From NCBI GenBank assembly GCA_043799545.1, contig JAZDNO010000021.1, positions 1 to 49,653 on the forward strand: 49,653 nucleotides of DNA, read 5' to 3'. This document shows positions 96 through 49,534 of this stretch, in pieces. The translations under genes were made by a program, and so were the position numbers. This stretch comes from Methanobacteriota archaeon (GTDB taxonomy: Archaea > Thermoplasmatota > Thermoplasmata > SG8-5 > DAIRED01). How positions within the stretch are numbered: the first letter of the stretch is position 1; each line of letters opens with the position of its first letter. Under the pieces are notes generated by a model. That model searched no databases, was not told where the DNA came from, and saw only the letters and a program-made list of their open reading frames with translations.

Positions 96-1661
96 TCAGA
101 CGTACCCGCGCTTGTCGTCCGTGAAGTGCTGGTTCCAGTAATGGTACGGAGAGTTCTGTTTCTGTGACCCGGTCATATCGCTCGCGACCCCGCCCTGGTA
201 GGAGCCGTAGCGGTCCTTTATCTGCTCCTCGATGCTCTTCGCGCGCTTCAAGGCATCCTGGATGTCCGCGCCGGTTATCAGCTTGTGGCCTTCCACGGTG
301 GCTATGTCGCCGGCGGTCCTTATGAGCCCTCCCAGCTCCCTGAGGCGGAGAGTCAACCCCTTCTCGCGGTTGTCCAGAAGCTTGGCGCGCCTCCCGGCCT
401 CCTTGATGGTTTCGTCGAGAGCCTCGATGGATGCGTGCGGAATCCTTCCGTCCATTATTATCTCCTGGGCGGCGAACTGGGCGAGCTTGAATCTGTTCTC
501 CTCGGTGTCTTCCATCGCCGTCTCCACAAGCACCTCGTATCCCGAGCCTATTATCCTCGACCTCAGAGGCGAGAGGATGTATTGCAGGTCCTGGATGTTG
601 TAGGCGCCGACGAAGATGAAATCGCATGGGACGTTGTCCACTCGGACGCTGGCGCCCGCGCTCTGCGGGTTCCTCCCGACTATCGGGAAACGCTTCTCCT
701 GCATTGCGGTGAGAAGGAAGCGCTGAAGCTGGGCCAGATGCGGCAGCTCGTCCACGAAAAGGACGCCCTGGTGCGCTTCGTGTATGGCACCCGGCAGCAC
801 TCTCTCGTAAGGCTGGGTCCCCAGTGTGGGATGCCCCCCGTACGGGTCGTGGCGCACGTCCCCCAGGAGTTCGACCTCGCTCGCACCGGTCGCAAGGACG
901 AAAGGGTTGCGGTTCACTGGAACGATGACCTTTCTGGGGCTGAGCTTGTCCATCTCCCGCGACTGCTCCAGCGCCTTCTGGTCGAGGATGCGAATCATCT
1001 CGCCTGCGCGCTCGTACACTACGACCTCGTCCTTGCCGAAGCGCTTCCTGGTGGTCGTGACGCGCTCATGGCCCGCCTGCGCGCCCATCGTCACCTCCAG
1101 CAGCCCGCCCAGCAGGTCGCCGAACGGGTTGTTCGGCGAGGCGCTCATGTTGGACATCTTCGGCCTCGTGCACTTCGGGCAGAAACGCTCCTTCGGAGTG
1201 GAATATGTGCCGCAGGTGACGCATTTGAAGCTCAGTCGCTCTGCCACGTTTACTGGAGCAGCTTTCGGCTCGATGAGCTCTCCCCCGGCCACCTGCTCGG
1301 TCTTGCTCTCCAGCTCCGCCTCCTCGCGGCTCTTGACCTCGATGAGCGGCCTCTCCGGGTTCTCAGGGTTCTGGACCACTCGAATCTCTTCTGAAGGCCT
1401 GTGCAGGTGGAGCGCAAGCGCCTGAGCTATCATCGATTTTCCGGTTCCCGGCGGACCCACCAGCATCAGATGCCTGCGCTGGTTTGCCGCTATCCTAGCG
1501 AGCTTGATGGCGTCGTCCTGGCCAATGACCCTTTTCAACGGATCCTTCGGTATGGGTATCTCAGCGGTGCTGGCGATGCCGTCGAGCGTCCACGCGGGGG
1601 AGCTCTCCTGCGATTCCGACGCCTGCCGCTCGCCCTTCGGGGTGATGCAAACCACTCTCAC
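96..1661 (-). CDS. LonB-like AAA+ ATPase lacking the protease domain and the TM insert (soluble, zinc-ribbon insert)
   Basis: LonB-type N-terminus VIGQDDAI, Walker A GPPGTGKS, Walker B VLFVDE, LLGDVRHDPY motif. CVTC-x10-CPKC sits where LonB has TM helices. The protein ends after the AAA lid with no Ser-Lys protease domain. The GTG start overlaps the dnaG stop (GTGA). Confidence 0.88.
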   Translation of the reverse strand: MRVVCITPKGERQASESQESSPAWTLDGIASTAEIPIPKDPLKRVIGQDDAIKLARIAANQRRHLMLVGPPGTGKSMIAQALALHLHRPSEEIRVVQNPENPERPLIEVKSREEAELESKTEQVAGGELIEPKAAPVNVAERLSFKCVTCGTYSTPKERFCPKCTRPKMSNMSASPNNPFGDLLGGLLEVTMGAQAGHERVTTTRKRFGKDEVVVYERAGEMIRILDQKALEQSREMDKLSPRKVIVPVNRNPFVLATGASEVELLGDVRHDPYGGHPTLGTQPYERVLPGAIHEAHQGVLFVDELPHLAQLQRFLLTAMQEKRFPIVGRNPQSAGASVRVDNVPCDFIFVGAYNIQDLQYILSPLRSRIIGSGYEVLVETAMEDTEENRFKLAQFAAQEIIMDGRIPHASIEALDETIKEAGRRAKLLDNREKGLTLRLRELGGLIRTAGDIATVEGHKLITGADIQDALKRAKSIEEQIKDRYGSYQGGVASDMTGSQKQNSPYHYWNQHFTDDKRGYV

Positions 1662-3001
1662 TCGAGGTCGGCCTTCGTCCAGACAGAGACCTCGCTCGCC
1701 TTCTTGGTCACGTTCCCCATCTTGCTGCCGACGAGGTTGCCGATTTTCTTCTCGGCCGCCAAATCCACAAGCCTCTGGGTGACTATCCCGTCGAAGACAA
1801 CTGTCTTTATCTTCTCCGGAGGCTCGCCCTTGAGCTTCTCCGCCAGGTCTCTGACCGCGACTTCCTCGAGAAGCGCGTTCTCAAGCCCGACGAGCTTTGC
1901 CTTGCTCGTGCCGGTGAGCTCCTGCAGCGTCTTCAGGAACGCCTCCTGCTCGACGGTAAGCTGCTTCTTGGCTTTCTTCGGCGGCTCCTGGCGCATCTCA
2001 TCGCGCCGGGGTTCCTCGCGGCGTGGCTTCCTCTCCTCCTTCGGTTCGGGGGAGCGATCGTCCCTTCTGTCGTCTCTCCTGTCGTCCCTCCGGCGTTCCC
2101 TTGGCTCTATATCTGGCCGTGGGCCGTTTTGGCGGGGCTCTGGCGAAACCTTCTCGTCCTTGTCAGGAGCGTGCGTTATGATGTCCGCACCCTGCTCGGC
2201 CGGAACCTTGTTGCGCAGCGCCTTCGTTATCTGCTTGTGGGTGAGCTCCTCGACCTCCATGTTCTGGGGTGCGCGGGCTATGAAATCTATCTCTGCGACC
2301 TGCATCAGCTCCCTTATTATGAGTTCCCCGCCCCTGTCACCGTCGACGAAGGCCGTCACGACCCTCTCCTTTGACAGATCCTGGATGGTCTTCGGGACGT
2401 TCGTTCCCTCGACCGCGATGGCGTTCTTTATTCCCGCTTTAAGCAGGTTGATTACGTCGTTCCTGCCCTCCACGACGATGATGGCGTCCGAGTCCTCGAT
2501 GTTCGGCCCTGCAGGCAAGCGCTCCGCCCCGTAGGTCAGTATGTCCTGCACCTGAACCGACTGGCGAACTGCCTCCGTGAGGTCGTCGGACGTCGATTTG
2601 GTGGATTCGAGAAGCTTCGTCAGGAGCTCTTTGGCCCTGTCGACGATTCTCGTCCTCTTGCTCATCCGGACGTCCTCGATGGAGAGCACGTCTATCTTAG
2701 CCCTGCACGGTCCCACGCGGTCTATCGTCTCAAGGGATGCGGCGAGTATCGCCGTCTCGACCTGGTCTAGGCTCGAAGGTATCAACACCTCTCCCTCTGC
2801 GTGGCCTTTTGTGGCCGTGATGTCCACTTCAATCCTGCCAATCCTCGATGACTTCTGAAGGTCGCGAAGATCGAGCTCCTCCCCTAGGAGCCCCTCTGTC
2901 TGGCCGAAAATCGCCCCGACGACGTCAGGCTTCTCGACTATGCCGTCGGCCGAAATCTTGGCCCTTATCATGTACTTCGTTGTGTTTGGATCTAGGTTCA
3001 T
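1658..3001 (-). CDS. dnaG: Archaeal DnaG-type primase (TOPRIM; exosome-associated family)
   Basis: KPDVVGAIFGQTEGLLGEELDLRDLQK and the TOPRIM motifs IIVVEGRNDV and FVDGDRGG. Confidence 0.97.
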   Translation of the reverse strand: MNLDPNTTKYMIRAKISADGIVEKPDVVGAIFGQTEGLLGEELDLRDLQKSSRIGRIEVDITATKGHAEGEVLIPSSLDQVETAILAASLETIDRVGPCRAKIDVLSIEDVRMSKRTRIVDRAKELLTKLLESTKSTSDDLTEAVRQSVQVQDILTYGAERLPAGPNIEDSDAIIVVEGRNDVINLLKAGIKNAIAVEGTNVPKTIQDLSKERVVTAFVDGDRGGELIIRELMQVAEIDFIARAPQNMEVEELTHKQITKALRNKVPAEQGADIITHAPDKDEKVSPEPRQNGPRPDIEPRERRRDDRRDDRRDDRSPEPKEERKPRREEPRRDEMRQEPPKKAKKQLTVEQEAFLKTLQELTGTSKAKLVGLENALLEEVAVRDLAEKLKGEPPEKIKTVVFDGIVTQRLVDLAAEKKIGNLVGSKMGNVTKKASEVSVWTKADLE

Positions 3002-3178
3002 ATCATTGCCTCCTTGGTTCTGGTAAGAATCGTTCCGGGCGGACTTTTCACATGTGTCCAGCCTAACCTTCTAGGTTATACGCGTGATATTCAACTTGAT
3101 GGTGAATTTCGTGAATGCGCTGTTCCGCGCAAGCATCGCGAATGGCGATTCTTTACGAAGGTTGAGTAGTTGTCGAAG

Positions 3179-9292: not shown

Positions 9293-9313
9293 GGGGCCGG
9301 AGTTACCGGCCCC
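9293..9313 (-). terminator. GC hairpin overlapping the stop codon of the giant surface gene, followed by a U-rich tract
   Basis: ggggccgg-agtta-ccggcccc (8-bp stem); on the minus strand it is followed by tcaggtttttctttt. Confidence 0.55.
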
Positions 9314-12300
9314 CCGCCTCCTCCGGGTTGCCCACGTAGGAGAGTGATTTCCGCCTGCGGCGGTAGACGGCCATAGGGAGGCCCACCACAGGCGGGATAA
9401 TCGCAATCATCTCGGCCGAGAACTCGGGAACGGGGATGATGACGCTGAGAATCTGGGACCAGCCCGTGCCGTCTGCGCTTGACGCGCCCTTGTCCGGGGC
9501 ACCAGCGATTACGTCGTTGTTGTCATCGTCGTTCAGGTCGCCTGCTTTACATACGGACCAGCCAAAGTGGCCGCCCGCTTGGGTTCCGTTTTTAATGTAA
9601 TCGCAATCAGACGCTGAGATTGTACCCGACAAGCCGGACGCACCGTTGAAAACGTAGACCGCGCCAGCGTCGGTGCCACCATTGTTATTGTTGGGGGCGC
9701 CGATCACAATGTCGTCTACGCTGTCACCGCTGATGTCTCCGGCGGCGTGAACGGACCAGCCGAAGCGGTCACCCGAGGATTCGCCGGTAAAGATGACATC
9801 TGGCATTGAGCAATATATGTAGTATATTTTAATGTCATGAAATATTGGAGACATACAGACATCGGTGGTTTTCATTTCAATATTATAGCATAAATCCTTA
9901 CCCACTGTTTCCGCAGGGAATATATACCATTGGCCCCTTTTAATATCTGAAATGTTCCAAGTAGCCCCACCATCTCTGGAGAAATTCACCCAGCAATTTG
10001 TACCTATCGGTGTTGTAACATTCCAGAACGGTTTGATGGCGGAGACGTAATATGGCACGTATGTCGTAGATGACGTGTAATCTCCAGAGGTATCGAATGT
10101 GTACAGCTTTATATCATCCACATATGCAAGTGCCATCCCGTTGTCAGCTGGGCTGTTAAAGTTCCAGGGATCGGTGATGAATTGAATGTTGTCAAGGCTA
10201 GCAACCGCGGTCCTAAATGGAGTGCTCTTACGAGCTAATGCTCCATCAATGTAGAAATCAAATGTGTCTGTTGTTGCAGCATCGAAGAGGAGTTCGAAGT
10301 GGTACCATTGGCCTGGTGTGTACGGTTGAAATGAGTATACTGTTGTACCTTGCGTGTACGTCATGTAACCATCGCTAAACCCAATCTCGATTCCAATAGT
10401 GGTTCCGCTCCTCAATCTAATTGCGAATTGCTCCTGGGTGGTTCCCTGGTCAGTGCACCGCGTCCATAGGTCGAAGACGCCAACGGTCATCGCCGAGAAT
10501 GTGTCTGATATGATGTTGCATCCTATGTCTTCACTTGAACTGTTATCATAGAAAACCATGGACTTCGTACCACCATGGTATACCGCATTACTGATTGCAA
10601 TGTTGGTGCCGGACTCCTGCGTCGGAATCCCCCACGGGGGATCTCGGGGATCTCCGCCAGCTGTGGCGTTCTCCAGATTATCCTCGAACACCATGTTTAT
10701 TGTCAGGTTCAGATTGTCATCGGAAGTGGCATAGATGTTGCCCGAGGGATTTACATCCTCCAAACTGCTTCCCGTTGCCGTGAAATCGGACTGAGCCGTG
10801 TCTGACCGTGATGCTTCGGTATCGAAATCATCATCCAGCCAGGCGTAAGCTGCTCCTGCGCCTGCCAATGGAGCTCCTATTATAATGTCGCCTTTTCCAC
10901 CACCGTCCCCGTTCATGTTTCCGGCATTCGCCACGCTGAAACCGAAGTTGTTTGCGGTGATGCCGCCAATCACATGGAGATACATATGGTCGACATGAAT
11001 CGTGTCCTGGTTCGAATCGCTTGTGGAGGCGTCAATAACACCGATGTATAGAGTCCCCGTGAAAGCATCGAGCGTGGCGTCTGAATATATCTGGTACGCA
11101 TCGTCATCGGTGGTTTTTGTAACATCCAGCATCTTTGTCCATGTTGAGACTGCCCCGGTGCCGGTTGTGGAATAATAGAACCCCATGTTCTCGGAATCCA
11201 GGTTTGTGCGATACGCTTCGAGGTAGAATGACGTGTCGGATCCCGTCGCAACCAAGGAAAACGTCCATTTGTGTTCCAGCCTCACGGATGCTGGAGTGAC
11301 GGTCGTATAGACCCGCATGAAGTCAACATTCAATGTATCCTGACCGTCTCCTGAACTGACAGTATCAATCACGCCCACGTAGAACGCCCCTCCCATATAC
11401 CCTGCCGCGTCGAGGTCGAACGTGAGCGTGTTGAGTGCCTGAGTCGTGTCTGTGAACATTAAGGTCCAGGCGGCCCCTCCGACAGGGTCCGTGCCAGTCG
11501 TGGAATACCAGTACTGGAAGTTATCGTCACCTCCGCTCGCCCAGCCTACATGTGCTTGGAACTCGTACTGGTTGGCTGATGACGGGACGGTTGTGAACGT
11601 CCACTTGTGCTCGAGGCTGTAGTATGCGGGAGTTGGGGCGACTTTGGTCACATTAACGAGGTCAAGCCAGACTGCCTCACCATTGACGCCTGCCGCGCGC
11701 CATTGGATCTGGAACGCAGCGTGCAGATACTGCGAATCGGTGATTGTCTGCTGATAATGATACCAAGTATCCTCTGTTGCTTGCAGGGTTGCCAGATCGA
11801 CAATGGAATCCCAAGTGCCTGTGTTGTCATAATAATATAGGCTATAATCGCCGGCATCGCCATCATCTTCACGCCACCAGAAATCGACGGTGACGCTGGT
11901 CGCTCCAGTGGTGCTCATCGCTGGCGATTGTAACGTCCCAGTCACTCCGGGGTTGGAACCGTCGAAGTCGGCAGAGTACGTCCCGCCGTAGGCTTGCTCC
12001 GTTTCAGGGTTCCATACGGTTCCTGCAGCTTCGGTCCAACCAGTAGGCCAAGAAGTGCCTTCGAAACTCTGTGTGGCTATCAATGTGACGGTCGTGCTGC
12101 TAGCGCCGACATAGGCCTCCACAATGTTCTCGTTCGTCCCGTCCTGCGCAAGCGTGGCGGAGTAATCGTTCGTGTGCGATGCCGACTGGGTGAACGTTTC
12201 CGATGCGGTGGCGTAGTCCGAATCGTACGTCGCCGCTGCGGTGGTTTCAGTGACGCTCTCGTAACCGTCATCAGAAGTTAACGTGTTCGAGTACGTGCCA

Positions 12301-15300
12301 GACACTGTCCCGACTACCGCGCTGTCGGACCCTGCGTAATAATCTTCGGTCAAGCTCGTACCGATTGAGAGCAGTTCCTTGTAAGGGATTGATTTGATGT
12401 ACATGTGGTCGATGAAAACCGAGTTGAGCTCGGTGTTCCCAACAGTCCTGTCGGCATCCCTGACCCCCACGTAGAGGGGTCCAGAGTAATAATTCAAATT
12501 CTCGTCCGAATAAGTCTGATAACTATTGTCATCGGTGGTTTTTGTTAAGGTAACCATCTTTGTCCAATCCGAAGTTCCAACGATGCCATCTTCGACCATT
12601 GAGTAATAGAATTCGAAGTCATCCCCTTCTGAATTTGATGAATGGTAGGCATCAATATAGAAAGTGCAGTTCGAACGTTCCGGGATGGTAAATTCCCATT
12701 TATGCTCCTCGAAACTAGTCATTCTCACTACCCAGTACGCAGCATTCTCAACATAATCAATCTCGTCGGCATTATTATCCAATATCGTCAGGTTGAATGC
12801 GAAGAACACTATCTGTCCGCCGTTGGCGGTGTTGGAGTCGTCATCGTGAGCGATGATTGTGCAACCCACGTTTGTCGCCGCCCAATCCCCGACGATGACG
12901 TTGTACTCGCCAGCGTCAGCATCTATCGTTGGCCCATCGGCTTGGTAAGTGAAACCGAGCGTGGTGAGTGTAGGGTCTGCCAACGTATTCGGCGTGCTTG
13001 CAACGGGGTGGGTCGGAGTCTGTATGTCGAAGTCAGTATTCGCGGTTATCTCTGTGTTCGAATCGATATTGAGCACGTCATCCATGAACTCCGTCCAAGA
13101 TTGAGCATTGGCAAAATCCGCGATGTCCCCACCCTCGACTATCAACGGCCCACCTGCCTGGGTATAATCCGCGAGATTATCGCGCACCGCATCGCTGCCA
13201 CCCATCAAATTCATATATCGGCTTCCCGAAGACCAGACAATGAATGTGTATCCCAACCATGTCGATTCTGCATTCTCATCGGTCATGTACGATGCACTGC
13301 TCTGTTCTTCCGTAACTGTGTAACCCAACCCGGTTAAAATCGTGCTGAATAAATCTGCGCTTCCGTCGAACGCATCGTTTCCATCATCATCTATAACGAG
13401 CACCCCTGACTGGCTGGTTTCCTGGATGGACTCATACGTATCGTCCTGGGAGTGCGTATCCTCATGCGTCCCTGACACCGTGCCTTTCGACGGGATGTCG
13501 GATTCGCTTTGCCTGTTCGTCGGAGTGTAATATACGAAGGCGCGGTCCTTCCCCGGCTCCCCCACAATGACCTCGCAACCGCCAACTCCGTCGGTGTTTC
13601 CAGCAGCTGAAACGGAGATACCGAAATAGCCGTTTTCATGTTTACCCTTCAATATCATATCGGCACCGCTTGCGGTTTCAGATGCCACGGTATTCTCCCC
13701 GTAGAATACGTAAGCCCCACCCACGTTTCCTTTGATTTCCTCCGTCTCACCTGTGACAATTATGTCATCAAGATACCAATAATCGATGTTCACGGTGCTG
13801 CCTACGAATGTCCAGGACAGGTAAAGCGTGCTCGACCCGGCTCCTAGCGCCTGGGAAATCACCGCGCTCTCGGTGGTCGCAGGCACGTTCGCAGTTGGCG
13901 ACATCGTCCAGGCTGTCGACCAGGTGCTGGCGTCAGTTGAGGTTTCCAACCTTATCTCGAACGTGTTGGAGTACCAGTCTACCATGTGCTTGAAGCTGAC
14001 TGTCAACTCGGTGTAACCCGAGGTATCGATACCCGGCGTGTAATCCCGGAATGTGCCAGTTGTGGATGCATAATATCTGAAGCGCATCTCCGGTGTCGTC
14101 CCGCCGGCATAATTCGTGTTGCTCGCACCCCACCTATTGGCATCCGTCCTTGTCCAACCGGTCGGGTTCGAACCTGGTGAGACGCCGGTGAAAAACTCGG
14201 AGAAAACGTTCTGAGATGTTAATATTGGTTGGCTTCGATATGGCGCGCCGACAATGATGTCGCTGTCACCTCCATTCGAAACGTCCTCGGCACCGCTGAC
14301 GCTCGCACCGAAATTGTCCCCTGTCTCCTCGCCGGTTAGCGTCACGTCAGCGTTTGCCACAGTTATTGTTTTCGGGAGCGTGCCGCCCGTTATCGTGGTG
14401 GAATAGAATATGTAAGCGCGACCCGTGCCGGAATTATACCCTGGCGCGCCAATAATTATGTCCGGGCCTCCGCCATTGACATCCCCGGCGTCGCTGACGC
14501 TCCAACCGAAATTATCACCACTATTTGCTCCGAGGATTGTCACGTTCGCTTTCACTGCGTTGAGATACTTCGAGCTGGAAGACGTGAAGCCTTCGTAGCC
14601 GAAGAACACGTAGGCGACCCCCGTGCCACTGCTGTTTCCGGGCGCCCCCACAATCACATCGTCCACACCGTCAGCGTTGATATCGCCAGCATATGAAACG
14701 TTCCATCCGAACTTGTCGCTGGCGGTACCTCCGTAACCGGACGTCACCTCGCCCATTGTAACCATATCGCCGTTTGTCTCCGGGCCGGGCTCCCCAGACC
14801 TCCGCGCTGCCAGCTGCCCCACGTCTCGCGCCCCACCACTCTCGCTCTCGTTCCTCCAGTCGTAGTGCCGCACGCAGTACCGGTCGCCCGTCGTGTTCAT
14901 CGGGAATGAGAACTCCAGCGCGCTTCCAGTTACCCGAAGGTCGAGCGCCGAGACTTCCGTCCAGTCCCACTCGCCCGGGTTCGAGCCCGAAAAGGACATT
15001 AGCCTGGCGCGCCGCGCGACGCTTTGCTTGCCGACCATCTCCGCAACGCGGTCCGCTCCGAGCCCGTCGATTGCGTAACCGGTCGTTGTGTCGTTGTCCG
15101 TGTCGTAGTAGAACCGCAGCGAATCCATCCCGAGGTTCTGAGGCGTAGTCACCGGACCGACATACACATGCGCCCCAGTTGCGCTGTCGTCCAGCCACTG
15201 GTCTGGGCCTCCGTAGCCGTAATCGAGCGCCCCGTCGTTGTCCGAGTCCGTGTCCTGGCCGTCGGGCACCCCGTCGTTGTCGAAATCGCGCTCGTATCCG

Positions 15301-18300
15301 GGCTCGTCCTCGTCAGCCCTGCCGTCGCGGTCTGTATCTGGCCGCACGACCGGCTGCGGCTGCGTCGAACCGCCAGCCCTAGCAACGGTGTCCACGGGAA
15401 CGGGAGCGCCTGGCAGCGCACTCCCGCCGAATGATGCATACCCATACGATTCGCCCGACACGGACACCGAAGAACTTGAAACCATCGGCGCCGGACTGGA
15501 TATCGCACCTGCCCATTCGCCGAACGCACCGTCCACGACCGCACCCGCGGGAATCGTTTCCCAGTAGTGCAATTTCGTGTTGGTTTCTAGCACAAGCCCC
15601 TTGCCAGACGCGGACGAAACGGATTTCACCCTCGCCCCGAAAGCGTCGCTCGTGGTGAGCCAGTTGACCTGCAGCTCGATGAAGACAGACACGCTTGAAC
15701 CAGACGTGGCCGGGATGCTCGTCGCCAGCGCCGCGGCTCCCGATAAGAAACTCCCCTGAGCCAACTGACCGCCGTCGAGCCCGACAAGCCTGCATTCCGG
15801 GATGGAAGTGTCCGAACCGCCGACCCTCTCGACTTCGATGCTGGAAACCGTCGCGTCGCCGCTGAACGCCCTGAGAACCACAGACGAAATCCTCAGCCAG
15901 CCTGTTGTAGATTCTATATCTTGGCCGATTGATGAAACGTCGGCCGACACGGAGGCCGCGCCGGGGGCGAAGTAACAGTCCGAGAAGTCGGTGAATTGGT
16001 TGTCCCACGATTGCGAATTCGCCAGGAGGCGGATAGGCGTCTGGGGGTTGGCGGATATCGAAGACCAATCGACCTGGGTTTCCAGCTCGGGACCGGAGAC
16101 CATCGCCCCTATGCCGCTGGACTGCTGGAATCCGTTCCAGTCCCATTGGTCGGCGCCGACGAAGGAACTGAGGCCGCAGGTTGCCACGCCGCCCAGGAAT
16201 CCGCTTGCGATTAAGACGTGGTCGGCTCCGATGCCAGATACAAGATATCCGGTTGCGGAGTTGGAGTCCGAATCTATGAACACCCTGATGGTATCCAGCC
16301 TGCCCTCCTGCGCCACAGGCTCCCCGGCGAGCATCGAAGCCGCCACGGCGACGCGGATGGCAAGATAGCGCCCTCCGTTGTCCGTAGCGCTCACGGAAGT
16401 GATGTCGACGTTTCCGTTGAAGGGTGCGGGCATCGCAGCGAGGGTCGAAACCGGGATGTTCTCCCAGTCGTTGAACCTTCCGTCAATCTCGATCGGCAGC
16501 GCCGAGCTTTCCACAGTCGTCATGGAGGAGAACAGTGGCATGAGGAGCAGGCCGAAAAGAACGAGGGGGATGAGGTACAGCTTCCACTGGTTGCTCGAAG
16601 CCTGAGTCCTGTATCTGGTTCCGCCTAAGCCGTTGGTCAGCCCGTTTCCGTTTGTCAGGCCGTTCGTCATCCCGTGCGGGAAGGCTCCGAGCCCGTCGAG
16701 GTCGCCTAAGCCGTTGGTCAGCCCGTTCGTGCGGCCGCCAGCGCCGTTGGTCAAACCGTTGGTTCGCCCACGCCCAGCACCATTCACGAGGCCGTTCGTG
16801 CGACCTCGCCCCGAACCGTTGACCATCCCATTTGTTCTGCCCTTGAGACCGTTCGTAAGACCGTTTGTCCTTCCCTTGCCAGAACCGTTCACAAGGCCGT
16901 TTGTGCGACCGCGCCCAGAGCCGTTGACAAGGCCGTTGGTCCTGCCTTTCAGGCCATTGGTCCGCCCCTTGCCAGAACCGTTCACAAGACCATTCGTGCG
17001 ACCCTGCAACCCGTTTGTGCGCCCGAGCCCGTTCGTCCTGCCCTTGCCCGCTCCGTTCACCATGCCGTTCGTTCGGCCTTTGGCGAGCCCGTTCGTCATG
17101 CCGGTAGCGCGCTGCTTCGCAGCCAGGCCGTTGGTCATTCCCTTCCGCTTCGCAGGGTCGTGGGTCATCGAATCGAACTTGGCAGATTCCCTCGCCGTCG
17201 GCTCGATTTTACGCACGACCTTTGGTCTCGCGACAGGCTGGGTGAGGTCGTGTGTGAGGGAATCCAGCAGCGTCTCCTCTTCAGCCTTTGGTTGGACAAG
17301 TTGTCTGGGTTTTGGCTTGGGTTTCGCCTGCGGCGCCGTGACATCGTGGGTGATGCGGTCTATCTCGTCCTCCTCAGCCTTCACAGGCTCCCTTGGCTTG
17401 GGCGATATTGGCTTGAGGCCAAGCTCCTCGTCCGCCAGCCTGAGGGTTTCGGCCTGCACCTTGCCCTGCTCGGACTTCCACTCGTCCGTCGGCGAAAAAC
17501 CCGCAAGGGCTTCCAGCTCGCCCAACATGTCCGTGACATCGTCCTTGGTAACGTTCTTCGCCTTCTCCTCGTCGGCGCGCTTTTGGCAAGATGCCGCGAC
17601 CTTGTCCTGACCCAGCTTGGCGAACAGTTCGGCCTTGAGAGCCCATACCTCGTAAGAGGCCGGGTTGAGCTTAGTAACGTCATTGAGGGCGTTGAGCGCT
17701 TCGCGCAATCGTCCCAATCCCGCTAGAATCTTCCCCTTCTCGAGCCACAGGGCCGTGTTCGTCGAATCGAATGCAAGCTTCGCCTCTACGTCTGCGAGCT
17801 GCTTCTCCAGTGGGTTTATCTTCTGGTCGTTGAAAATCATCCCGCACTCGTAGCAGTCTCCATCCGCAGCACCGAGTATCGTCCCGCAGAGCGGGCAGTC
17901 CCTTTCAGCCATCTGCGACTTTGCCTCGGCGGGTGGGCTGGCAGCGGCGGCCTTTATCTCCTTGGCGGTTCTCTGGCCAATTCCTTTGATGTTGGCGATA
18001 TCCGTTTCCGTTGCAGCGACAATCTCTTCGAGGGATCTGAAGCCCGCAACGTACAGCGCGCTAGCCTTCATGGGTCCGATGTTGTCGAGCCTCTGGAACT
18101 CAGCCTCCACGTCGTCTCTTGACCTTGCAATTGCGCTGCCTCCGAATTCGGCAGCGAGCTCTGCGAGGATGATGGCGGGGTCGGCAGTGCCTGACATCGA
18201 TTCGTAAAGTTCCTTCGAAACGGACAATGATGTGCGGAGCATGGTTTTTCGATAGTATCCAGCAGCCTCCGAGGCCTTGCCCAGCCGGTTCAGGACATGG

Positions 18301-18563
18301 GCCTTTGCGGACGGCAGCCCGTCAATAGTAGGATCCAGCGCCTCGGCCTTGTCGAGCGCGGCCAGCGATTGCGCGAATCGTTCAAGGTCGCTCAGGACCA
18401 GGGCTCTGGCGTACCATATCCTTGCGTTCTTCGGGTCTTTCTGGAGCAGGCTCTCCTGCTTGCGGAGGATGTCCTCCTCTTTGTTCGATGCCGAGGGTGG
18501 CTCGGTGGACTTGCTCCACTTAGCGACAAAATCCTCACCGAACTTCTTTTCCTTCTTGTCCAT
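9303..18563 (-). CDS. Giant (~3090 aa) membrane-spanning surface protein: TPR-HhH-zinc ribbon-TPR, [TV]NG repeats, TM, DOMON/CBM9-like pair, FG-GAP propeller with inserted domains, PEF-CTERM
   Basis: Uninterrupted ORF. TPRs (NARIWYARALVLSDL, NTALWLEKGKILAGL); tandem HhH (LDNIGPMKA, IKGIGQRTA); TM LYLIPLVLFGLLLMPLF; 7 FGxSV..GDxNxDG..DxIxGAP repeats; DxDxDG Ca-binding loops; C-terminal VPEF-hydrophobic-RRRRK. Start is ATG 18563 or 18587. Confidence 0.88.
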   Translation of the reverse strand: MDKKEKKFGEDFVAKWSKSTEPPSASNKEEDILRKQESLLQKDPKNARIWYARALVLSDLERFAQSLAALDKAEALDPTIDGLPSAKAHVLNRLGKASEAAGYYRKTMLRTSLSVSKELYESMSGTADPAIILAELAAEFGGSAIARSRDDVEAEFQRLDNIGPMKASALYVAGFRSLEEIVAATETDIANIKGIGQRTAKEIKAAAASPPAEAKSQMAERDCPLCGTILGAADGDCYECGMIFNDQKINPLEKQLADVEAKLAFDSTNTALWLEKGKILAGLGRLREALNALNDVTKLNPASYEVWALKAELFAKLGQDKVAASCQKRADEEKAKNVTKDDVTDMLGELEALAGFSPTDEWKSEQGKVQAETLRLADEELGLKPISPKPREPVKAEEDEIDRITHDVTAPQAKPKPKPRQLVQPKAEEETLLDSLTHDLTQPVARPKVVRKIEPTARESAKFDSMTHDPAKRKGMTNGLAAKQRATGMTNGLAKGRTNGMVNGAGKGRTNGLGRTNGLQGRTNGLVNGSGKGRTNGLKGRTNGLVNGSGRGRTNGLVNGSGKGRTNGLTNGLKGRTNGMVNGSGRGRTNGLVNGAGRGRTNGLTNGAGGRTNGLTNGLGDLDGLGAFPHGMTNGLTNGNGLTNGLGGTRYRTQASSNQWKLYLIPLVLFGLLLMPLFSSMTTVESSALPIEIDGRFNDWENIPVSTLAAMPAPFNGNVDITSVSATDNGGRYLAIRVAVAASMLAGEPVAQEGRLDTIRVFIDSDSNSATGYLVSGIGADHVLIASGFLGGVATCGLSSFVGADQWDWNGFQQSSGIGAMVSGPELETQVDWSSISANPQTPIRLLANSQSWDNQFTDFSDCYFAPGAASVSADVSSIGQDIESTTGWLRISSVVLRAFSGDATVSSIEVERVGGSDTSIPECRLVGLDGGQLAQGSFLSGAAALATSIPATSGSSVSVFIELQVNWLTTSDAFGARVKSVSSASGKGLVLETNTKLHYWETIPAGAVVDGAFGEWAGAISSPAPMVSSSSVSVSGESYGYASFGGSALPGAPVPVDTVARAGGSTQPQPVVRPDTDRDGRADEDEPGYERDFDNDGVPDGQDTDSDNDGALDYGYGGPDQWLDDSATGAHVYVGPVTTPQNLGMDSLRFYYDTDNDTTTGYAIDGLGADRVAEMVGKQSVARRARLMSFSGSNPGEWDWTEVSALDLRVTGSALEFSFPMNTTGDRYCVRHYDWRNESESGGARDVGQLAARRSGEPGPETNGDMVTMGEVTSGYGGTASDKFGWNVSYAGDINADGVDDVIVGAPGNSSGTGVAYVFFGYEGFTSSSSKYLNAVKANVTILGANSGDNFGWSVSDAGDVNGGGPDIIIGAPGYNSGTGRAYIFYSTTITGGTLPKTITVANADVTLTGEETGDNFGASVSGAEDVSNGGDSDIIVGAPYRSQPILTSQNVFSEFFTGVSPGSNPTGWTRTDANRWGASNTNYAGGTTPEMRFRYYASTTGTFRDYTPGIDTSGYTELTVSFKHMVDWYSNTFEIRLETSTDASTWSTAWTMSPTANVPATTESAVISQALGAGSSTLYLSWTFVGSTVNIDYWYLDDIIVTGETEEIKGNVGGAYVFYGENTVASETASGADMILKGKHENGYFGISVSAAGNTDGVGGCEVIVGEPGKDRAFVYYTPTNRQSESDIPSKGTVSGTHEDTHSQDDTYESIQETSQSGVLVIDDDGNDAFDGSADLFSTILTGLGYTVTEEQSSASYMTDENAESTWLGYTFIVWSSGSRYMNLMGGSDAVRDNLADYTQAGGPLIVEGGDIADFANAQSWTEFMDDVLNIDSNTEITANTDFDIQTPTHPVASTPNTLADPTLTTLGFTYQADGPTIDADAGEYNVIVGDWAATNVGCTIIAHDDDSNTANGGQIVFFAFNLTILDNNADEIDYVENAAYWVVRMTSFEEHKWEFTIPERSNCTFYIDAYHSSNSEGDDFEFYYSMVEDGIVGTSDWTKMVTLTKTTDDNSYQTYSDENLNYYSGPLYVGVRDADRTVGNTELNSVFIDHMYIKSIPYKELLSIGTSLTEDYYAGSDSAVVGTVSGTYSNTLTSDDGYESVTETTAAATYDSDYATASETFTQSASHTNDYSATLAQDGTNENIVEAYVGASSTTVTLIATQSFEGTSWPTGWTEAAGTVWNPETEQAYGGTYSADFDGSNPGVTGTLQSPAMSTTGATSVTVDFWWREDDGDAGDYSLYYYDNTGTWDSIVDLATLQATEDTWYHYQQTITDSQYLHAAFQIQWRAAGVNGEAVWLDLVNVTKVAPTPAYYSLEHKWTFTTVPSSANQYEFQAHVGWASGGDDNFQYWYSTTGTDPVGGAAWTLMFTDTTQALNTLTFDLDAAGYMGGAFYVGVIDTVSSGDGQDTLNVDFMRVYTTVTPASVRLEHKWTFSLVATGSDTSFYLEAYRTNLDSENMGFYYSTTGTGAVSTWTKMLDVTKTTDDDAYQIYSDATLDAFTGTLYIGVIDASTSDSNQDTIHVDHMYLHVIGGITANNFGFSVANAGNMNGDGGGKGDIIIGAPLAGAGAAYAWLDDDFDTEASRSDTAQSDFTATGSSLEDVNPSGNIYATSDDNLNLTINMVFEDNLENATAGGDPRDPPWGIPTQESGTNIAISNAVYHGGTKSMVFYDNSSSEDIGCNIISDTFSAMTVGVFDLWTRCTDQGTTQEQFAIRLRSGTTIGIEIGFSDGYMTYTQGTTVYSFQPYTPGQWYHFELLFDAATTDTFDFYIDGALARKSTPFRTAVASLDNIQFITDPWNFNSPADNGMALAYVDDIKLYTFDTSGDYTSSTTYVPYYVSAIKPFWNVTTPIGTNCWVNFSRDGGATWNISDIKRGQWYIFPAETVGKDLCYNIEMKTTDVCMSPIFHDIKIYYIYCSMPDVIFTGESSGDRFGWSVHAAGDISGDSVDDIVIGAPNNNNGGTDAGAVYVFNGASGLSGTISASDCDYIKNGTQAGGHFGWSVCKAGDLNDDDNNDVIAGAPDKGASSADGTGWSQILSVIIPVPEFSAEMIAIIPPVVGLPMAVYRRRRKSLSYVGNPEEAGGR
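16622..17142 (-). repeat. Coding low-complexity repeat, about 26 copies of [LMR][TV]NG
   Basis: GRTNGLVNGSGKGRTNGL... read directly from the translation; ccgtt-rich DNA on the + strand. Confidence 0.95.
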
Positions 18564-18650
18564 GGTATAACATTCTTCTTTATGCAACTAAGGTATTAAA
18601 CAATAGAGGCAATTGATAAAACATGAAGTTACAATTATACACGTTAATGG

Positions 18651-19349
18651 TTACAATAAATTGTATAATTCGGCCCTTCGGGTCATCGAGTTCTCGAAAG
18701 GTCTCGATGGGACAGTCAGGCTGTAATCCCCTGAATGTGCCGCGAAACCGTAATCGACGGAGCCGTCCTTCAAGGGGTTCGCTTGGCATTTGACAGCGCC
18801 CTGATGGCACAGTTTTACCAGGACAGCTTTATGCGCATCGTAACCGCAGTCGATTGCCTTTGAAAGCGCCTTGAGTCCCGTGCCGGGATACAGGCGGTTC
18901 GTTTTGCCGTCTCCGACCATAGACACGAGTTCCGCGTCTGCGAGCAGCTCGATTGATGATTTGGAGCGGTAAGCCACAGAACAACCAGGCTTGGTCATCG
19001 ATGCCCAGATTATCGAGGCTCCCGCCTTGCCCGACACGAGCAGGAGAAGTCCCACCGTATGGATGTCTGCGACGGCCGCCGCCGGCGAATAGTGTAAGGT
19101 GCCGTCGAAATCCCATATTTCCACGAAACCCTCGCGCGCAAGAACTGTGAGGTGCCAACGCGACGCCTTTCTCGTCAGTCCGCTGAGGCGCGAAACGGTC
19201 CCGGACCTCGCGATGACCAGTTCAATCACCGACTGGTAAACCGCCAGGCGGTTCGGGTTCGTGAGCGCGAACTCACCAGCATGGCCGCCTCGAGGCTCAT
19301 GGGCATCGTCGACTATGCGCTTCAGCGATTCGCCAATCTTCGGGGACAT
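18651..19349 (-). CDS. Double winged-helix (ArsR/MarR-like) regulator, apparently diverged
   Basis: LTNPNRLAVYQSV..VSRLSGLTRKASRWHLTVLAREGFV. It starts 7 nt after the KaiC-like stop, behind a GGAG RBS. Confidence 0.6.
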   Translation of the reverse strand: MSPKIGESLKRIVDDAHEPRGGHAGEFALTNPNRLAVYQSVIELVIARSGTVSRLSGLTRKASRWHLTVLAREGFVEIWDFDGTLHYSPAAAVADIHTVGLLLLVSGKAGASIIWASMTKPGCSVAYRSKSSIELLADAELVSMVGDGKTNRLYPGTGLKALSKAIDCGYDAHKAVLVKLCHQGAVKCQANPLKDGSVDYGFAAHSGDYSLTVPSRPFENSMTRRAELYNLL

Positions 19350-19356
19350 GGGGCTC

Positions 19357-20259
19357 CTACTGGATGCCGTACTCCTCGAGGATGTTCGCCAGCGCCATGT
19401 TCACGTCGACGTCCCCCAGCTCCTCGGCTGCGAGGATGTCGAGCGTGTGCTTCAAACCAGCCCTCGCCTTGGCGTCCAGACGGTCCATGCGCTCGCGCTG
19501 GGCTGCGTTCAGCTTCCTCTCCAGCAGCTTCGCGAGGTCAACCTTCATCCTCGGTTTTGCAGTCCCTTCCTGAGAATTCTCTATGAGGATGCCGGCGCCG
19601 CGGACTATCCTGTATGGGTGCCAGAACTTGCTGTGCCTGCTGCTCCTGCACTTGATTATCTTCATCTCCCTCGTCTCGGGGCTCTCGTGGCTCTTGTACC
19701 TCAGGTGGATGACGTTGTCCGCGAGGTACATCGGTATCACCAGCTCCGGCGAAGACAGGTCGGATGTCACCCCGTGCTCCTCGAGCGTGCACAGGACCGT
19801 CCCTATCTTCCTCGTCTCCCTGAGGAAGTACGAAACCAGCTCGCGCTGCTCGTATTTCTCCTTGACCGACCATAGAACGGGGGTGAGCGGGTCGATGACT
19901 ATGCGCGCGCCGTGACCCTTCCAGTCCTCCACGAAGTTCGCCAGCTCCTTGCGTATGAAGTTGGAGAACTGCTTGCCGCTGGCATCGACGAAGACCATGG
20001 AGCCCTCGTCGATGTACTTGTCGACCTCCTCCCAGCCCATCTCCCTGACCTCTTTGATTATCTGGTCGGGCGACTCGTCTAGCGTGATGAAGATGGCGTC
20101 CTCGCCGTCCTCGAGCCCCCGCTTTAAAAAGTATGTGGCGAACGTCGTCTTGCCCGCGCCCGACGAGCCAATCACGGCCGTGACCGTGTTCTCGTTGATG
20201 CCTCCGTCTATCAGCTGGTTGAGCCCGTACACGCCGCTACGTATCTTGCGCATCGCCAT
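19357..20259 (-). CDS. Single-domain KaiC/RAD55-like RecA-superfamily ATPase
   Basis: SGVYGLNQLIDGG, Walker A GSSGAGKT, ITLDES, RIVIDP, YLADNVIHL, IIKCRSS. Confidence 0.9.
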   Translation of the reverse strand: MAMRKIRSGVYGLNQLIDGGINENTVTAVIGSSGAGKTTFATYFLKRGLEDGEDAIFITLDESPDQIIKEVREMGWEEVDKYIDEGSMVFVDASGKQFSNFIRKELANFVEDWKGHGARIVIDPLTPVLWSVKEKYEQRELVSYFLRETRKIGTVLCTLEEHGVTSDLSSPELVIPMYLADNVIHLRYKSHESPETREMKIIKCRSSRHSKFWHPYRIVRGAGILIENSQEGTAKPRMKVDLAKLLERKLNAAQRERMDRLDAKARAGLKHTLDILAAEELGDVDVNMALANILEEYGIQ

Positions 20260-20271
20260 TTGGCGGCTCCC

Positions 20272-20487
20272 TCACCACGATAGGCGGTCGAGCGTCCGCT
20301 CTTCCTTCGTGGCCTTCTTGAACTGCCTGTAGTGCTCCTTGCAGAGATGGGCGGTCTTGCCGTCGCCTCCGATTTCGAGACCCAGCGCCCCCTTCACTTT
20401 ACCCGTGTGGAGGGATCTCACCGAAATCTCAGTGCAATCGGATATGTCGCACTTCTCCGTATTGGCCTTGGGCTTGGGATGACTCAT
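20272..20487 (-). CDS. Small zinc-finger-like protein
   Basis: C-x4-C near the N-terminus and LCKEHY near the C-terminus. It ends 12 nt upstream of the KaiC-like gene. Confidence 0.7.
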   Translation of the reverse strand: MSHPKPKANTEKCDISDCTEISVRSLHTGKVKGALGLEIGGDGKTAHLCKEHYRQFKKATKEERTLDRLSW

Positions 20488-30406: not shown

Positions 30407-30478
30407 AAGACATCCCTCTTTTCCAATCCAGCGAAGGATTAATATATCGAAAGGATTATAAATAGGTTGTCGTGAAAA

Positions 30479-49299: not shown

Positions 49300-49534
49300 C
49301 TCCATTCCTCCATCCCGCATCGTAATCCCAAACAGAAAGCAGGGATAATTGTTTTGTTAGGATAGGTTATAATATGAAACTGATACCTTATATAGTTTAC
49401 GCAAAATAATATCTACTACATACATAGCATTTAAATACTACCCCAGAGAACACATATATAGATATATAAATAATATATGAAAATTAAATTTTACATGAAT
49501 ATATACGAATGAAAAACGGAAAAGTAAAGGATTT

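Follow-up and report, generated by a model that had tools for sequence, protein, structure and literature searches.

A giant surface protein of a Thermoplasmatota archaeon joins a cytoplasmic-type head to an FG-GAP ectodomain and is encoded in a conserved KaiC/winged-helix cassette

To our knowledge, it is not settled how environmental sensing works in archaea that have no histidine kinases; KaiC-like ATPases have been proposed as hubs, but we know of no membrane inputs to them. The window analyzed here, the whole of a 49.6-kb contig from an uncultured Thermoplasmatota archaeon, raises this question through a single giant gene. An initial annotation proposed that the gene product spans the envelope, is anchored in the membrane at both ends and acts either as an outside-in contact receptor or as a DNA-coupled adhesin. 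The following analysis addresses what the protein is, how it may be held at the surface and which partners it is likely to work with.

Results

The giant gene encodes one membrane-spanning protein

The giant gene is located at 9303..18563 (-) and encodes 3086 aa from an ATG, a start set by ortholog alignment. The ORF itself covers 9303..18587 (-), or 3094 codons counted from a TTG at 18587. The ATG is codon 9 of this ORF (nt 18563) and is in register with the ortholog N-termini; the coordinates 9303-18563 assigned to the gene in the initial annotation are therefore right. Residue numbering throughout is that of P0001, counted from the TTG. A lower GC3 in codons 1600-3000 is the sole compositional oddity of the ORF. 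The protein is arranged as TPR, (HhH)2, Cys4 zinc ribbon, TPR, basic [TV]NG repeats, TM, FG-GAP ectodomain and a VPEF-TM-RRRRK terminus. This order is identical end to end in orthologs on 956-kb, 367-kb and 57-kb contigs, and orthologs with 30-45% head identity retain the full architecture. Homologs likewise combine heads and ectodomains of these kinds, the point on which the initial annotation had staked its reading. The giant ORF is a genuine 3,086-residue membrane-spanning surface protein and not a chimera.

The head precedes a single signal-anchor

No signal peptide is present at the hydrophilic N-terminus, and hydrophobic sequence first appears at aa 670. A TPR unit (aa 38-116; 18240..18476 (-)) was detected with the Pfam models TPR_8, TPR_17, TPR_19 and TPR_14, barely above the cut-offs. 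The (HhH)2 domain follows (aa 164-215; 17943..18098 (-); HHH_5, 37.8 bits, cut-off 27), and both of its GxG hairpins are kept in the ortholog alignment. Because the hairpins are conserved, DNA binding by this domain is possible. The NCBIfam stretches closest to it are the HhH regions of UvrC, RadA, Hef and helicases. The Cys4 zinc ribbon (17844..17897 (-)) is formed by C231, C234, C245 and C248, which occupy invariant alignment columns and are unchanged in five orthologs. A second TPR unit (aa 271-340; 17568..17777 (-)) matches TPR_16, TPR_19 and TPR_14 in Pfam. The linker between the head domains and the membrane is a basic [TV]NG[LM] repeat array of 21 motifs (aa 485-664; 16596..17135 (-)), placed on the predicted cytoplasmic side of the TM and a hallmark of the whole family. 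At the DNA level the repeats have diverged from one another (36-nt period, 66% matches), which rules out an assembly artefact as the source of the array.

The signal-anchor TM (aa 670-692; 16512..16580 (-)) begins after a conserved basic R..WK motif, is followed by acidic sequence and contains two prolines conserved family-wide. A Kyte-Doolittle mean of 1.7 is reached by two segments only, aa 670-688 (nt about 16524-16580) and one at the C-terminus. Pfam, alignment and hydropathy thus agree with the annotated order of TPR, HhH, zinc ribbon and TPR before a single TM with no signal peptide, and with the annotated TM position of 16531-16580. The head contains 14% K+R and 17% D+E compared to 4% and 13% in the ectodomain. 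The missing signal peptide, the R..WK motif before the TM, the cytoplasmic composition of the head, its zinc ribbon and the ATPase present in the heads of relatives all argue for an N-in/C-out protein that would cross the membrane once with a large cytoplasmic head. Removal of the head as a 'giant signal peptide' is disfavored because the family conserves the cytoplasmic juxtamembrane motif and the repeats, whereas a small-x-small cleavage motif downstream of the TM is not conserved in it.

A conserved stalk defines the family

The juxtamembrane stalk (aa 695-1260; 14808..16505 (-)) is the family-defining element, and no Pfam family was found for it. By prediction it comprises a CBM9/DOMON-like domain, an Ig/CBM-like domain, a TSP3-type Ca loop and a second CBM9-like domain, and it was modeled with AF2 (pLDDT 79, pTM 0.75). 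Model residues 5-188 resemble CBM9 and the DOMON-like ethylbenzene dehydrogenase gamma subunit (Z 11; rmsd 3.6-3.8 over 150-170 aligned residues), and residues 187-322 resemble sialidase N-terminal CBMs (Z 13) and integrin calf-1 (Z 9). Integrin alpha chains were the top Foldseek matches to the whole model, yet the TM-scores were only 0.12-0.16 and the matches were read as generic Ig-like legs; the fold assignments rest on per-domain structure comparison. The model predicts that the conserved stalk of about 550 aa folds as CBM9-like, Ig-like and CBM9-like modules. Back-translated stalk patterns correspond to common TSP3-like Asp motifs, and one locus was confirmed by a DNA search of this kind.

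Family membership was defined by a repeat array at most 150 aa before a single TM, the 550-aa stalk directly after it and a PEF-type tail. The giant protein has all three, and so do six paralogs in the source genome, with the same repeat, TM, stalk and a PE[FY] tail. The shared order, behind a variable cytoplasmic head, is repeat, TM, conserved 550-aa stalk, variable distal part and [IV]PEF tail. The source genome has 7 family genes, and up to 13 matches occur per genome. Stalk identity was 29-35% in 120/120 database clusters listed, and the stalk profile retrieved 630 clusters at E<=1e-30. The giant protein scores 506.8 bits against this profile, being itself among the 30 rows that built it. 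No description of a [TV]NG-TM-stalk-PEF family was found in the literature searched, including papers on PEF-CTERM. These results define a large, previously undescribed Thermoplasmatota family.

The ectodomain carries seven FG-GAP repeats

The ectodomain (aa 693-3053) is about 2,360 aa long, acidic and Ser/Thr-rich. Seven FG-GAP repeats (aa 1293, 1360, 1426, 1655, 2548, 2942 and 3008; 9453..14735 (-)) were located, and the FG-GAP score for the whole protein is 68.5 bits (cut-off 22.1). The annotated ectodomain of about 2,400 aa with integrin-alpha-like FG-GAP repeats is confirmed by these values. A search of PDB sequences with aa 1270-1720 returned integrin alpha in 60/60 matches (best E 2e-10). 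Large inserts follow repeats 3, 4 and 5 and consist of choice-of-anchor-J, sialidase-type CBM and jelly-roll modules; a PDB sequence search with aa 1690-2560, which holds inserts, gave no match at E<=0.01. The orthologs P0003, P0004 and P0005 also have seven repeats; in P0002, whose inserts differ, the pattern gave five and inspection by eye another two. Domain-wise modeling, the check suggested at the outset, succeeded for the stalk modules and failed for the propeller: the AF2 model of P0002:1195-1960 from a 5-row alignment had pLDDT 30.8 and pTM 0.31 and was unusable. The single propeller is accordingly deduced from repeat counting, and most likely the seven FG-GAP repeats form one propeller that carries inserted lectin-like modules.

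An ArtC-like archaeosortase co-occurs with the family

The C-terminal tail (9306..9434 (-)) consists of VPEF, 19 hydrophobic residues, RRRRK and 14 aa, with PEF at 3054-3056, the hydrophobic stretch at 3057-3075 and RRRRK at 3076-3080. This is the annotated PEF-TM-basic terminus and has the PEF-CTERM layout of motif, hydrophobic helix and basic cluster at the C-terminal end. The tail aligns over positions 1-25 of 25 of the PEF-CTERM model TIGR03024 and scores 15.2 bits where the cut-off is 23 (E 0.019 on a 75-aa piece). The highest-scoring ORF of the whole genome, at 20.8 bits, also falls short of this cut-off. PEF-CTERM substrates are also defined by a cleavable N-terminal signal peptide, which the giant protein lacks. 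Tails of the [IV]PE[FMY...] type are present in 105 of the 120 homologs in the database clusters listed.

The gene G000:C7:20492-21598 encodes an exosortase/archaeosortase (TIGR04178, 50.5 bits, cut-off 23; PF09721, 45.3 bits, cut-off 25.7). The archaeosortase that the initial annotation advised looking for is thus present by its family signature; ArtC (TIGR03762) is its best subfamily, at 59.8 bits, below the cut-off of 100. The enzyme contains SCTG, NVIRM and THNNAG motifs with conserved Cys, Arg and His, which we take to be catalytic, and has a Cys-rich C-terminal extension. In a 201-genome sample of the phylum, a sortase ortholog (E<=1e-39) and the stalk module occurred together in 24/24 sortase-positive genomes, which represent 13 families besides that of the source genome. 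The ortholog was present in 0/172 module-negative genomes and absent from 5 module-positive ones. A divergent ArtC-like archaeosortase co-occurs with the stalk family. The source genome also encodes ArtA (120.7 bits, cut-off 75). By analogy with characterized archaeosortase substrates, the tail would be processed by the ArtC-like enzyme and the ectodomain anchored at both ends. The annotated double anchor stands as far as the PEF-type tail and the sortase gene go; the tail score is below the PEF-CTERM cut-off, and the processing step is presumptive. We know of no experimental precedent for ArtC processing.

A KaiC-like ATPase and a winged-helix regulator are encoded upstream

The giant gene is the last of four genes in a cassette ordered 71-aa protein, KaiC, wHTH and giant gene, with gaps of 12, 7 and 87 nt. 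The first gene (20272..20487 (-)) encodes a 71-aa Cys/His protein, a small Zn protein with 47% identical counterparts at the same position in L003/L004. The second (19357..20259 (-)) encodes a 300-aa KaiC-like ATPase (PF06745, 137.3 bits, cut-off 26.6) with a Walker A GSSGAGKTT that is invariant in orthologs; the orthologs at the same cassette position are 65% identical. The third (18651..19349 (-)), 87 nt upstream of the giant gene, encodes a winged-helix regulator of 232 aa that is homologous to the HTH_24-bearing neighbors in L003/L004 and whose weak structural neighbors are all wHTH proteins. No Pfam family was found for the 232-aa and 71-aa genes. The four-gene cassette is kept in two orthologs with differing flanks.

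A KaiC and an HTH gene are located upstream of 7/7 HhH-type heads checked. In sister subfamilies, KaiC is fused onto the head and occupies the HhH position. The KaiC-fused heads checked (n=2) have no separate KaiC upstream; one, P0053, has an HTH gene directly upstream, and the other is preceded by a gene without a Pfam match. TPR-only heads (P0011) have no adjacent KaiC. Across six genomes, 12/35 family genes have a KaiC at most 7 kb upstream on the same strand (rough chance estimate at most about 6%). With KaiC adjacent to only about one-third of the family genes, the coupling is not universal. The source genome (94% complete) contains 35 KaiC matches and one clear receiver domain, and no HisKA was found in it.

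The predicted complex of KaiC with head aa 9-350 scored 0.47, compared to 0.00 for the best of 3 controls, in a range (<=0.60) that holds only 7/80 solved complexes and both passing mismatches and where a pass, unless backed by a strong prior, is wrong more often than it is right. The mark for this method is reached by 58/80 solved complexes and 2/110 mismatched pairs. Contacts agreed by at least 33% among the runs, and the partner pLDDT was at least 71. The modeling weakly supports a physical contact between KaiC and the head.

Discussion

The stalk fold, the co-occurrence with an ArtC-like archaeosortase and the conserved KaiC/wHTH/giant-protein cassette are new here. The reading we favor, with modest confidence, is that the giant protein is a type-II-oriented surface glycoprotein that serves as an adhesion or ligand-binding receptor, is sorted through its tail by the ArtC-like enzyme and is coupled to a KaiC/wHTH switch. 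The seven integrin-alpha-type, Ca-binding FG-GAP repeats would provide a propeller scaffold for the lectin-like inserts, and the outer part may be an adhesion or glycan-binding surface. In the ArtA model the C-terminal helix is removed and a lipid is attached. By analogy with ArtA and PGF-CTERM, the ArtC-like archaeosortase would cut the tail and a lipid would replace it, leaving the mature protein held at both ends; if the N-terminal anchor is kept and the tail is sorted, the ectodomain would therefore be looped and anchored at two points. The TPR-(HhH)2-Zn-ribbon-TPR head would work with the KaiC-like ATPase and winged-helix regulator encoded upstream. The state of the surface protein could thereby act on the ATPase switch and on transcription (outside-in), or the coupling could run in the opposite direction (inside-out). 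The outside-in receptor is the better of the two roles first proposed. The conserved KaiC/wHTH genes upstream and the KaiC-fused heads of sister subfamilies point toward it, and signaling itself is a presumed role. A broader proposal, possible rather than probable, is that the family is an unrecognized class of archaeal receptors: integrin-like adhesion or glycan sensors with an ectodomain held at two points and heads that recruit or are fused to KaiC, that signal through a dedicated wHTH protein and, in Thermoplasmatota without histidine kinases, take the place of two-component sensors.

The strongest alternative, unlikely on balance but to be taken seriously, is a purely structural envelope or adhesion coat in which the head, repeats and KaiC serve biogenesis, clustering or quality control. 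The family is multi-copy, the ectodomain is acidic and Ser/Thr-rich with lectin-like modules, KaiC accompanies about a third of the members, and a head that folds ahead of the export of 2,400 aa might plausibly depend on an ATPase. KaiC adjacency would equally fit such an assembly or quality-control role. A wHTH gene, however, is located beside KaiC in 7/7 HhH-type cassettes and with 1/2 KaiC-fused genes, and an assembly role needs none. The head modules (TPR, HhH, zinc ribbons) also vary widely and are specific to lineages, like those of sensor and adaptor proteins.

Intramembrane cleavage that follows a surface signal and frees the head to act on DNA or on KaiC/wHTH, as in Notch-like or RIP-type receptors, is improbable. 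Intramembrane-protease substrates typically have helix-breaking residues, and the two TM prolines and the cytoplasmic juxtamembrane motif are conserved in the family, with a canonical (HhH)2 plus zinc ribbon in the head. Against this, TM prolines are not specific to protease substrates and the cassette has no protease gene. We give still less weight to the DNA-coupled adhesin of the initial annotation, in which the HhH head would hold chromosomal DNA, or DNA entering the cell, at the site of surface contact. Its basis is the HHH_5 match above cut-off with two conserved hairpins and the kinship to HhH regions of DNA-processing proteins, but contacts between proteins are also made by HhH domains, for example those of the RNA polymerase alpha CTD and the NusA CTD. 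The analysis yielded no link of the protein to DNA, the cassettes contain no DNA-uptake, nuclease or recombination genes, and KaiC holds the HhH position in sister subfamilies. An assembly chimera or a two-gene fusion artefact has a negligible probability given a frame unbroken over 9.3 kb and the same plan in orthologs on three contigs, in six paralogs and in >100 clusters.

The favored reading of a tail-sorted receptor coupled to KaiC would supply a concrete membrane input for KaiC: a surface protein with a head that either carries a fused KaiC or is encoded in a conserved cassette alongside KaiC and a regulator. Substrates of archaeosortases would then also include proteins in which an N-terminal membrane anchor and a large cytoplasmic domain are retained. 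The 550-aa stalk module (>600 clusters) could annotate hundreds of giant Thermoplasmatota proteins now labeled 'hypothetical'.

Comparison with known systems

The closest sorting system is PEF-CTERM/archaeosortase C (NCBIfam TIGR03024, TIGR03762), reportedly described by Haft, Payne and Selengut in 2012. The likeness lies in the tripartite PEF-helix-basic tail, a genome-encoded enzyme that matches ArtC best, several substrates per genome and enzyme-substrate co-occurrence. In contrast to that system, the tail and enzyme here both fall short of the curated cut-offs. In the substrates, a cytoplasmic head of 200-1,350 aa and a signal-anchor take the place of a cleavable signal peptide, the tail of the giant protein has 14 extra residues and the sortase has a Cys-rich C-terminal extension. 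The ArtA/PGF-CTERM processing of the Haloferax volcanii S-layer glycoprotein, said to have been reported by Abdul Halim et al. in 2013 and 2015, differs in motif and enzyme subfamily, and ArtA substrates lose a signal peptide by cleavage and lack a cytoplasmic domain.

The giant protein shares with integrin alpha seven FG-GAP repeats, Dx[DN]xDG-type Ca loops, the PDB sequence matches, an insert between blades (compare the alpha-I domain), Ig-like legs and a one-pass plan with a partner-binding cytoplasmic part. It differs in its predicted N-in orientation, in legs that precede the propeller, in having no GFFKR tail, in a cytoplasmic part that is N-terminal and 670 aa long and in a propeller fold drawn from repeat counts. 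No beta-subunit candidate (beta-I/VWA) was found in or beside the cassette. With a different orientation, tail and domain order, the giant protein is not an integrin.

Archaeal KaiC-like ATPases are reportedly signal-transduction hubs, as Makarova, Galperin and Koonin are said to have set out in mBio in 2017. The locus resembles such hubs in its single-domain KaiC, in a conserved neighborhood with a wHTH protein and a membrane component, and in a source genome where KaiC is greatly expanded and HisKA was not detected. It is unlike them in that the membrane partner is a giant, putatively archaeosortase-sorted, adhesin-like protein.

Domain layout of the giant protein

One open frame spans 9303..18587 on the minus strand of the window. 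In the alignment, four orthologs begin level with its ATG at codon 9 (nt 18563), and the giant gene is therefore placed at 9303-18563, encoding 3086 aa; residues are numbered as in P0001, the protein counted from the TTG. The giant protein is a real feature, and each element listed in the initial annotation of a trans-envelope protein was found where it had been placed. A hydrophilic N-terminus leads into a head in which Pfam identifies a TPR (aa 38-116), an (HhH)2 domain (aa 164-215; 37.8 bits versus a cut-off of 27) and a second TPR (aa 271-340). A Cys4 ribbon (C231/C234/C245/C248) is invariant in the alignment of five orthologs. The second TPR is joined by a Pro/Lys-rich linker to an array of 21 [TV]NG[LM] motifs (aa 485-664), visible in the DNA as a diverged 36-nt period with 66% matches. 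Only two segments reach membrane-helix-grade hydrophobicity, aa 670-688 and a C-terminal one. The ~2,360 aa between them are acidic, with 4% Lys+Arg versus 14% in the head, and include seven FG-GAP repeats (aa 1293, 1360, 1426, 1655, 2548, 2942 and 3008). The tail consists of VPEF, 19 hydrophobic residues, RRRRK and 14 further residues; the 25-position PEF-CTERM model can be aligned to it in full, but at 15.2 bits, below the cut-off of 23. We infer with good support an N-in/C-out topology with a retained anchor.

Another ORF in the window (27056-30784, minus strand; 1242 codons) has acidic linkers carrying about eight CxxC-x10-CxxC zinc ribbons, followed by four TM segments and C-terminal TPRs, the same cytoplasmic vocabulary as in the giant protein's head.

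The plan recurs across a large family

The genome of the window (G000) encodes six further ORFs with a repeat array, TM, post-TM region and PE[FY]-TM-basic tail (874, 1044, 1218, 1643, 2832 and 6093 aa); the tail of the 874-aa paralog sits on the next ORF. A search of a 5.8-billion-protein collection with the first 720 residues returned 170 proteins of 1,700-5,400 aa, and family counts refer to the 120 of these matches that were listed. Each of the 120 aligns with aa 690-1240 at 29-35% identity, nearly all have a repeat cluster 100-150 aa ahead of a single TM, and 105 end in [IV]PE[FMY..]-TM-basic. Most of the 15 exceptions have no tail at all and look cut short. The four best matches (P0002-P0005), which reside on contigs of up to 956 kb, share the head at 30-45% identity across ~340 aa. 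Seven FG-GAP repeats are found by pattern in P0003-P0005, and five in P0002 plus two read by eye. A profile of the conserved part collects 630 clusters (50% identity) at E<=1e-30 and 1,182 at E<=1e-10. The giant protein is not a chimera: the proviso that homologs might never join head and ectodomain fails because the plan recurs in paralogs, homologs and orthologs. No description of the family was found in the literature searched, and the stalk fold, the sortase co-occurrence, the complementarity of head type and KaiC and the family size are new here.

The TM junction opens a conserved stalk

The junction stands out for its conservation. In the family alignment, the last repeats give way to a basic R(F/Y)xRE...WK motif and then to a TM in which two prolines are conserved; 12-18 variable residues lead on to IDGxFxDW, the start of the first ectodomain module. 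The basic motif and the TM prolines (window 16581-16640) are kept in most members printed, regardless of head or ectodomain. No small-x-small motif follows the TM in this alignment, so there is no sign of a signal-peptidase site. Pfam assigns no family to the 600 residues past the TM, the region that begins with the stalk. Their predicted structure (30-row alignment; pLDDT 79, pTM 0.75) resembles CBM9 and the DOMON-like gamma subunit of ethylbenzene dehydrogenase at model residues 5-188 (Z 11, rmsd 3.6-3.8, 150-170 aligned). The next stretch, residues 187-322, is closer to the N-terminal CBM of Bacteroides sialidases (Z 13, rmsd 2.5, 129 aligned) than to integrin calf-1 (Z about 9). The third domain is by sequence a repeat of the first and bears an invariant Asp-rich, thrombospondin-type-3-like loop. 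The stalk is built of modules that are usually carbohydrate-binding, although sharing a fold does not by itself show function.

The distal ectodomain is a predicted propeller with inserts

A PDB sequence search with aa 1270-1720 returned integrin alpha chains in 60 of 60 matches (best E 2e-10), aligned on the Ca-binding blades. A single propeller requires seven such repeats. The propeller fold is a prediction, its structure model being unusable at pLDDT 31. Inserts of ~190, 850 and 345 aa follow repeats 3, 4 and 5 and hold choice-of-anchor-J domains (32.6 bits, cut-off 30), a sub-threshold sialidase-type CBM and three copies of a 105-aa module. In P0002 a proprotein-convertase P domain occupies the first of these sites (its listed Pfam families include the P domain), the insert at the second is short and the third is empty. 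Because these inserts differ at the same sites, the propeller seems to serve as a scaffold on which inserts can be exchanged.

GC3 is 0.53-0.64 in window 9590-13790 (codons ~1600-3000) versus 0.69-0.77 elsewhere in the gene, and climbs back to 0.77 over the final 94 codons. From aa 1929, which covers most of the low-GC3 part, the protein is closest to P0003 (49% identity over 1,168 aa versus ~32% elsewhere), whose source genome is about 46% GC. These features suggest either an exchange of the insert-bearing distal cassette between lineages or a different codon constraint on it.

Head type and KaiC are complementary in the genes checked

Three genes precede the giant gene on its own strand, the four being separated by 12, 7 and 87 nt: a 71-aa Cys/His protein (20272-20487, minus strand; CxxxxC...CxxH, no Pfam family) that opens the cassette, a KaiC-like ATPase (137 bits) and, directly upstream of the giant gene, a 232-aa protein. 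The same four genes occur in the same order with P0003 and P0005, and the outer flanks differ. Identity to the window is 65% for KaiC, 47% for the 71-aa protein and 23-26% for the 232-aa protein (E 1e-14 to 1e-18). Orthologs of the latter match HTH_24, and by structure the window's copy has only archaeal winged-helix regulators as neighbours, at a weak TM of 0.43-0.50.

Heads in the family are of KaiC-TPR-Zn, HhH-Zn(n)-TPR or TPR-only type. A KaiC and an HTH gene lie directly upstream in 7/7 HhH-type genes checked (the window, ortholog loci L003 and L004, the 2832-aa paralog on contig C2, and P0044, P0096 and P0087, whose ectodomains are quite different). Two KaiC-fused genes, P0053 and P0007, have no separate KaiC upstream; directly upstream of P0053 is a 206-aa HTH gene, and Pfam gives no match for the 252-aa gene that precedes P0007. 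The TPR-only gene checked has neither upstream. At that locus, L011 (ENA contig k141_1645055, 424256-443180), TPR-only P0008 (2545 aa) and P0011 (2974 aa) stand in tandem with no KaiC upstream and a KaiC-like gene 1.7 kb downstream on the opposite strand. In six genomes taken together, a same-strand KaiC lies no more than 7 kb upstream of 12 of the 35 family genes; the chance expectation estimated from KaiC density is at most about 6%. G000 (2.06 Mb, 94% complete) has ~35 KaiC matches, one clear receiver domain and no HisKA match. It also has three HATPase_c matches, in frames of 594-727 aa.

A predicted complex of KaiC with head aa 9-350 scored 0.47 (best of three controls, 0.00), with contact agreement of at least 33% and partner pLDDT of at least 71 across runs. 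The mark for this test is reached by 58/80 solved complexes and 2/110 mismatched pairs, and scores <=0.60 come from only 7/80 solved complexes and both passing mismatches. The score weakly supports the pairing and is a small addition to the prior from fusion and synteny.

An ArtC-like archaeosortase accompanies the stalk

G000 encodes ArtA (120.7 bits, cut-off 75) and a second enzyme (C7:20492-21598) that passes the archaeosortase signature (50.5 versus 23 bits). Its best subfamily is ArtC, yet it scores 59.8 against a cut-off of 100; the Cys, Arg and His in motifs taken as catalytic are retained. This ArtC-like enzyme (L001:1297-2406) has a Cys-rich cytoplasmic C-terminal extension of ~50 aa (CxxC...CxC...C...CxxC), zinc-ribbon-like as are the ribbons on the heads of its presumed substrates. 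The enzyme (ortholog threshold E<=1e-39) and the stalk profile were both searched against a single sample of 201 genomes, drawn evenly from the phylum. The stalk occurs in 24/24 genomes with an ArtC-like ortholog (13 families besides the window's own), five stalk-positive genomes have no such ortholog, and 0/172 stalk-negative genomes have one, a pattern rather than a statistic, as kin are not independent. Enzyme and tail are read as a lineage-specific variant of ArtC/PEF-CTERM.

A C-terminal module of ~60 aa (...G.AYWV.V..D..WTV.W) is shared by the ORF at window 44002-49320 (minus strand) and no fewer than 15 further giant ORFs of G000, many of them 1,000-2,400 aa long; none has a PEF tail. 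The module has the look of another C-terminal domain for sorting or anchoring, distinct from the PEF tail.

Proposed working and alternatives

Beside the observed domain order, family, cassette and sortase co-occurrence we set a proposed mechanism, the one that seems most likely. By analogy borrowed from ArtA/PGF-CTERM, the ArtC-like enzyme would cut off the C-terminal helix and lipidate the giant protein. Tethered at each end, the ectodomain would form a loop whose stalk and closed propeller sit close to the membrane and whose inserts face outward. Synteny and fusion point to docking of the KaiC-like ATPase on the head, and through KaiC and the winged-helix protein either surface state would be relayed to transcription or the surface protein would be controlled from inside. 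A purely structural or biogenesis role for head and KaiC is the leading rival to such a link, and we consider it unlikely, at perhaps a sizeable minority chance. Release of the head by intramembrane cleavage is improbable. The (HhH)2 domain may bind DNA; nothing in the results points to it doing so, and the DNA-coupled reading in the initial annotation, with the giant protein as a DNA tether, is more improbable still. An assembly artefact is scarcely credible for a plan that recurs in six paralogs of the same genome and in the listed database homologs. Of known systems, the giant protein would work like an archaeosortase-sorted adhesin and, more loosely, like an integrin, but judged by the tests that define these families it belongs to neither.
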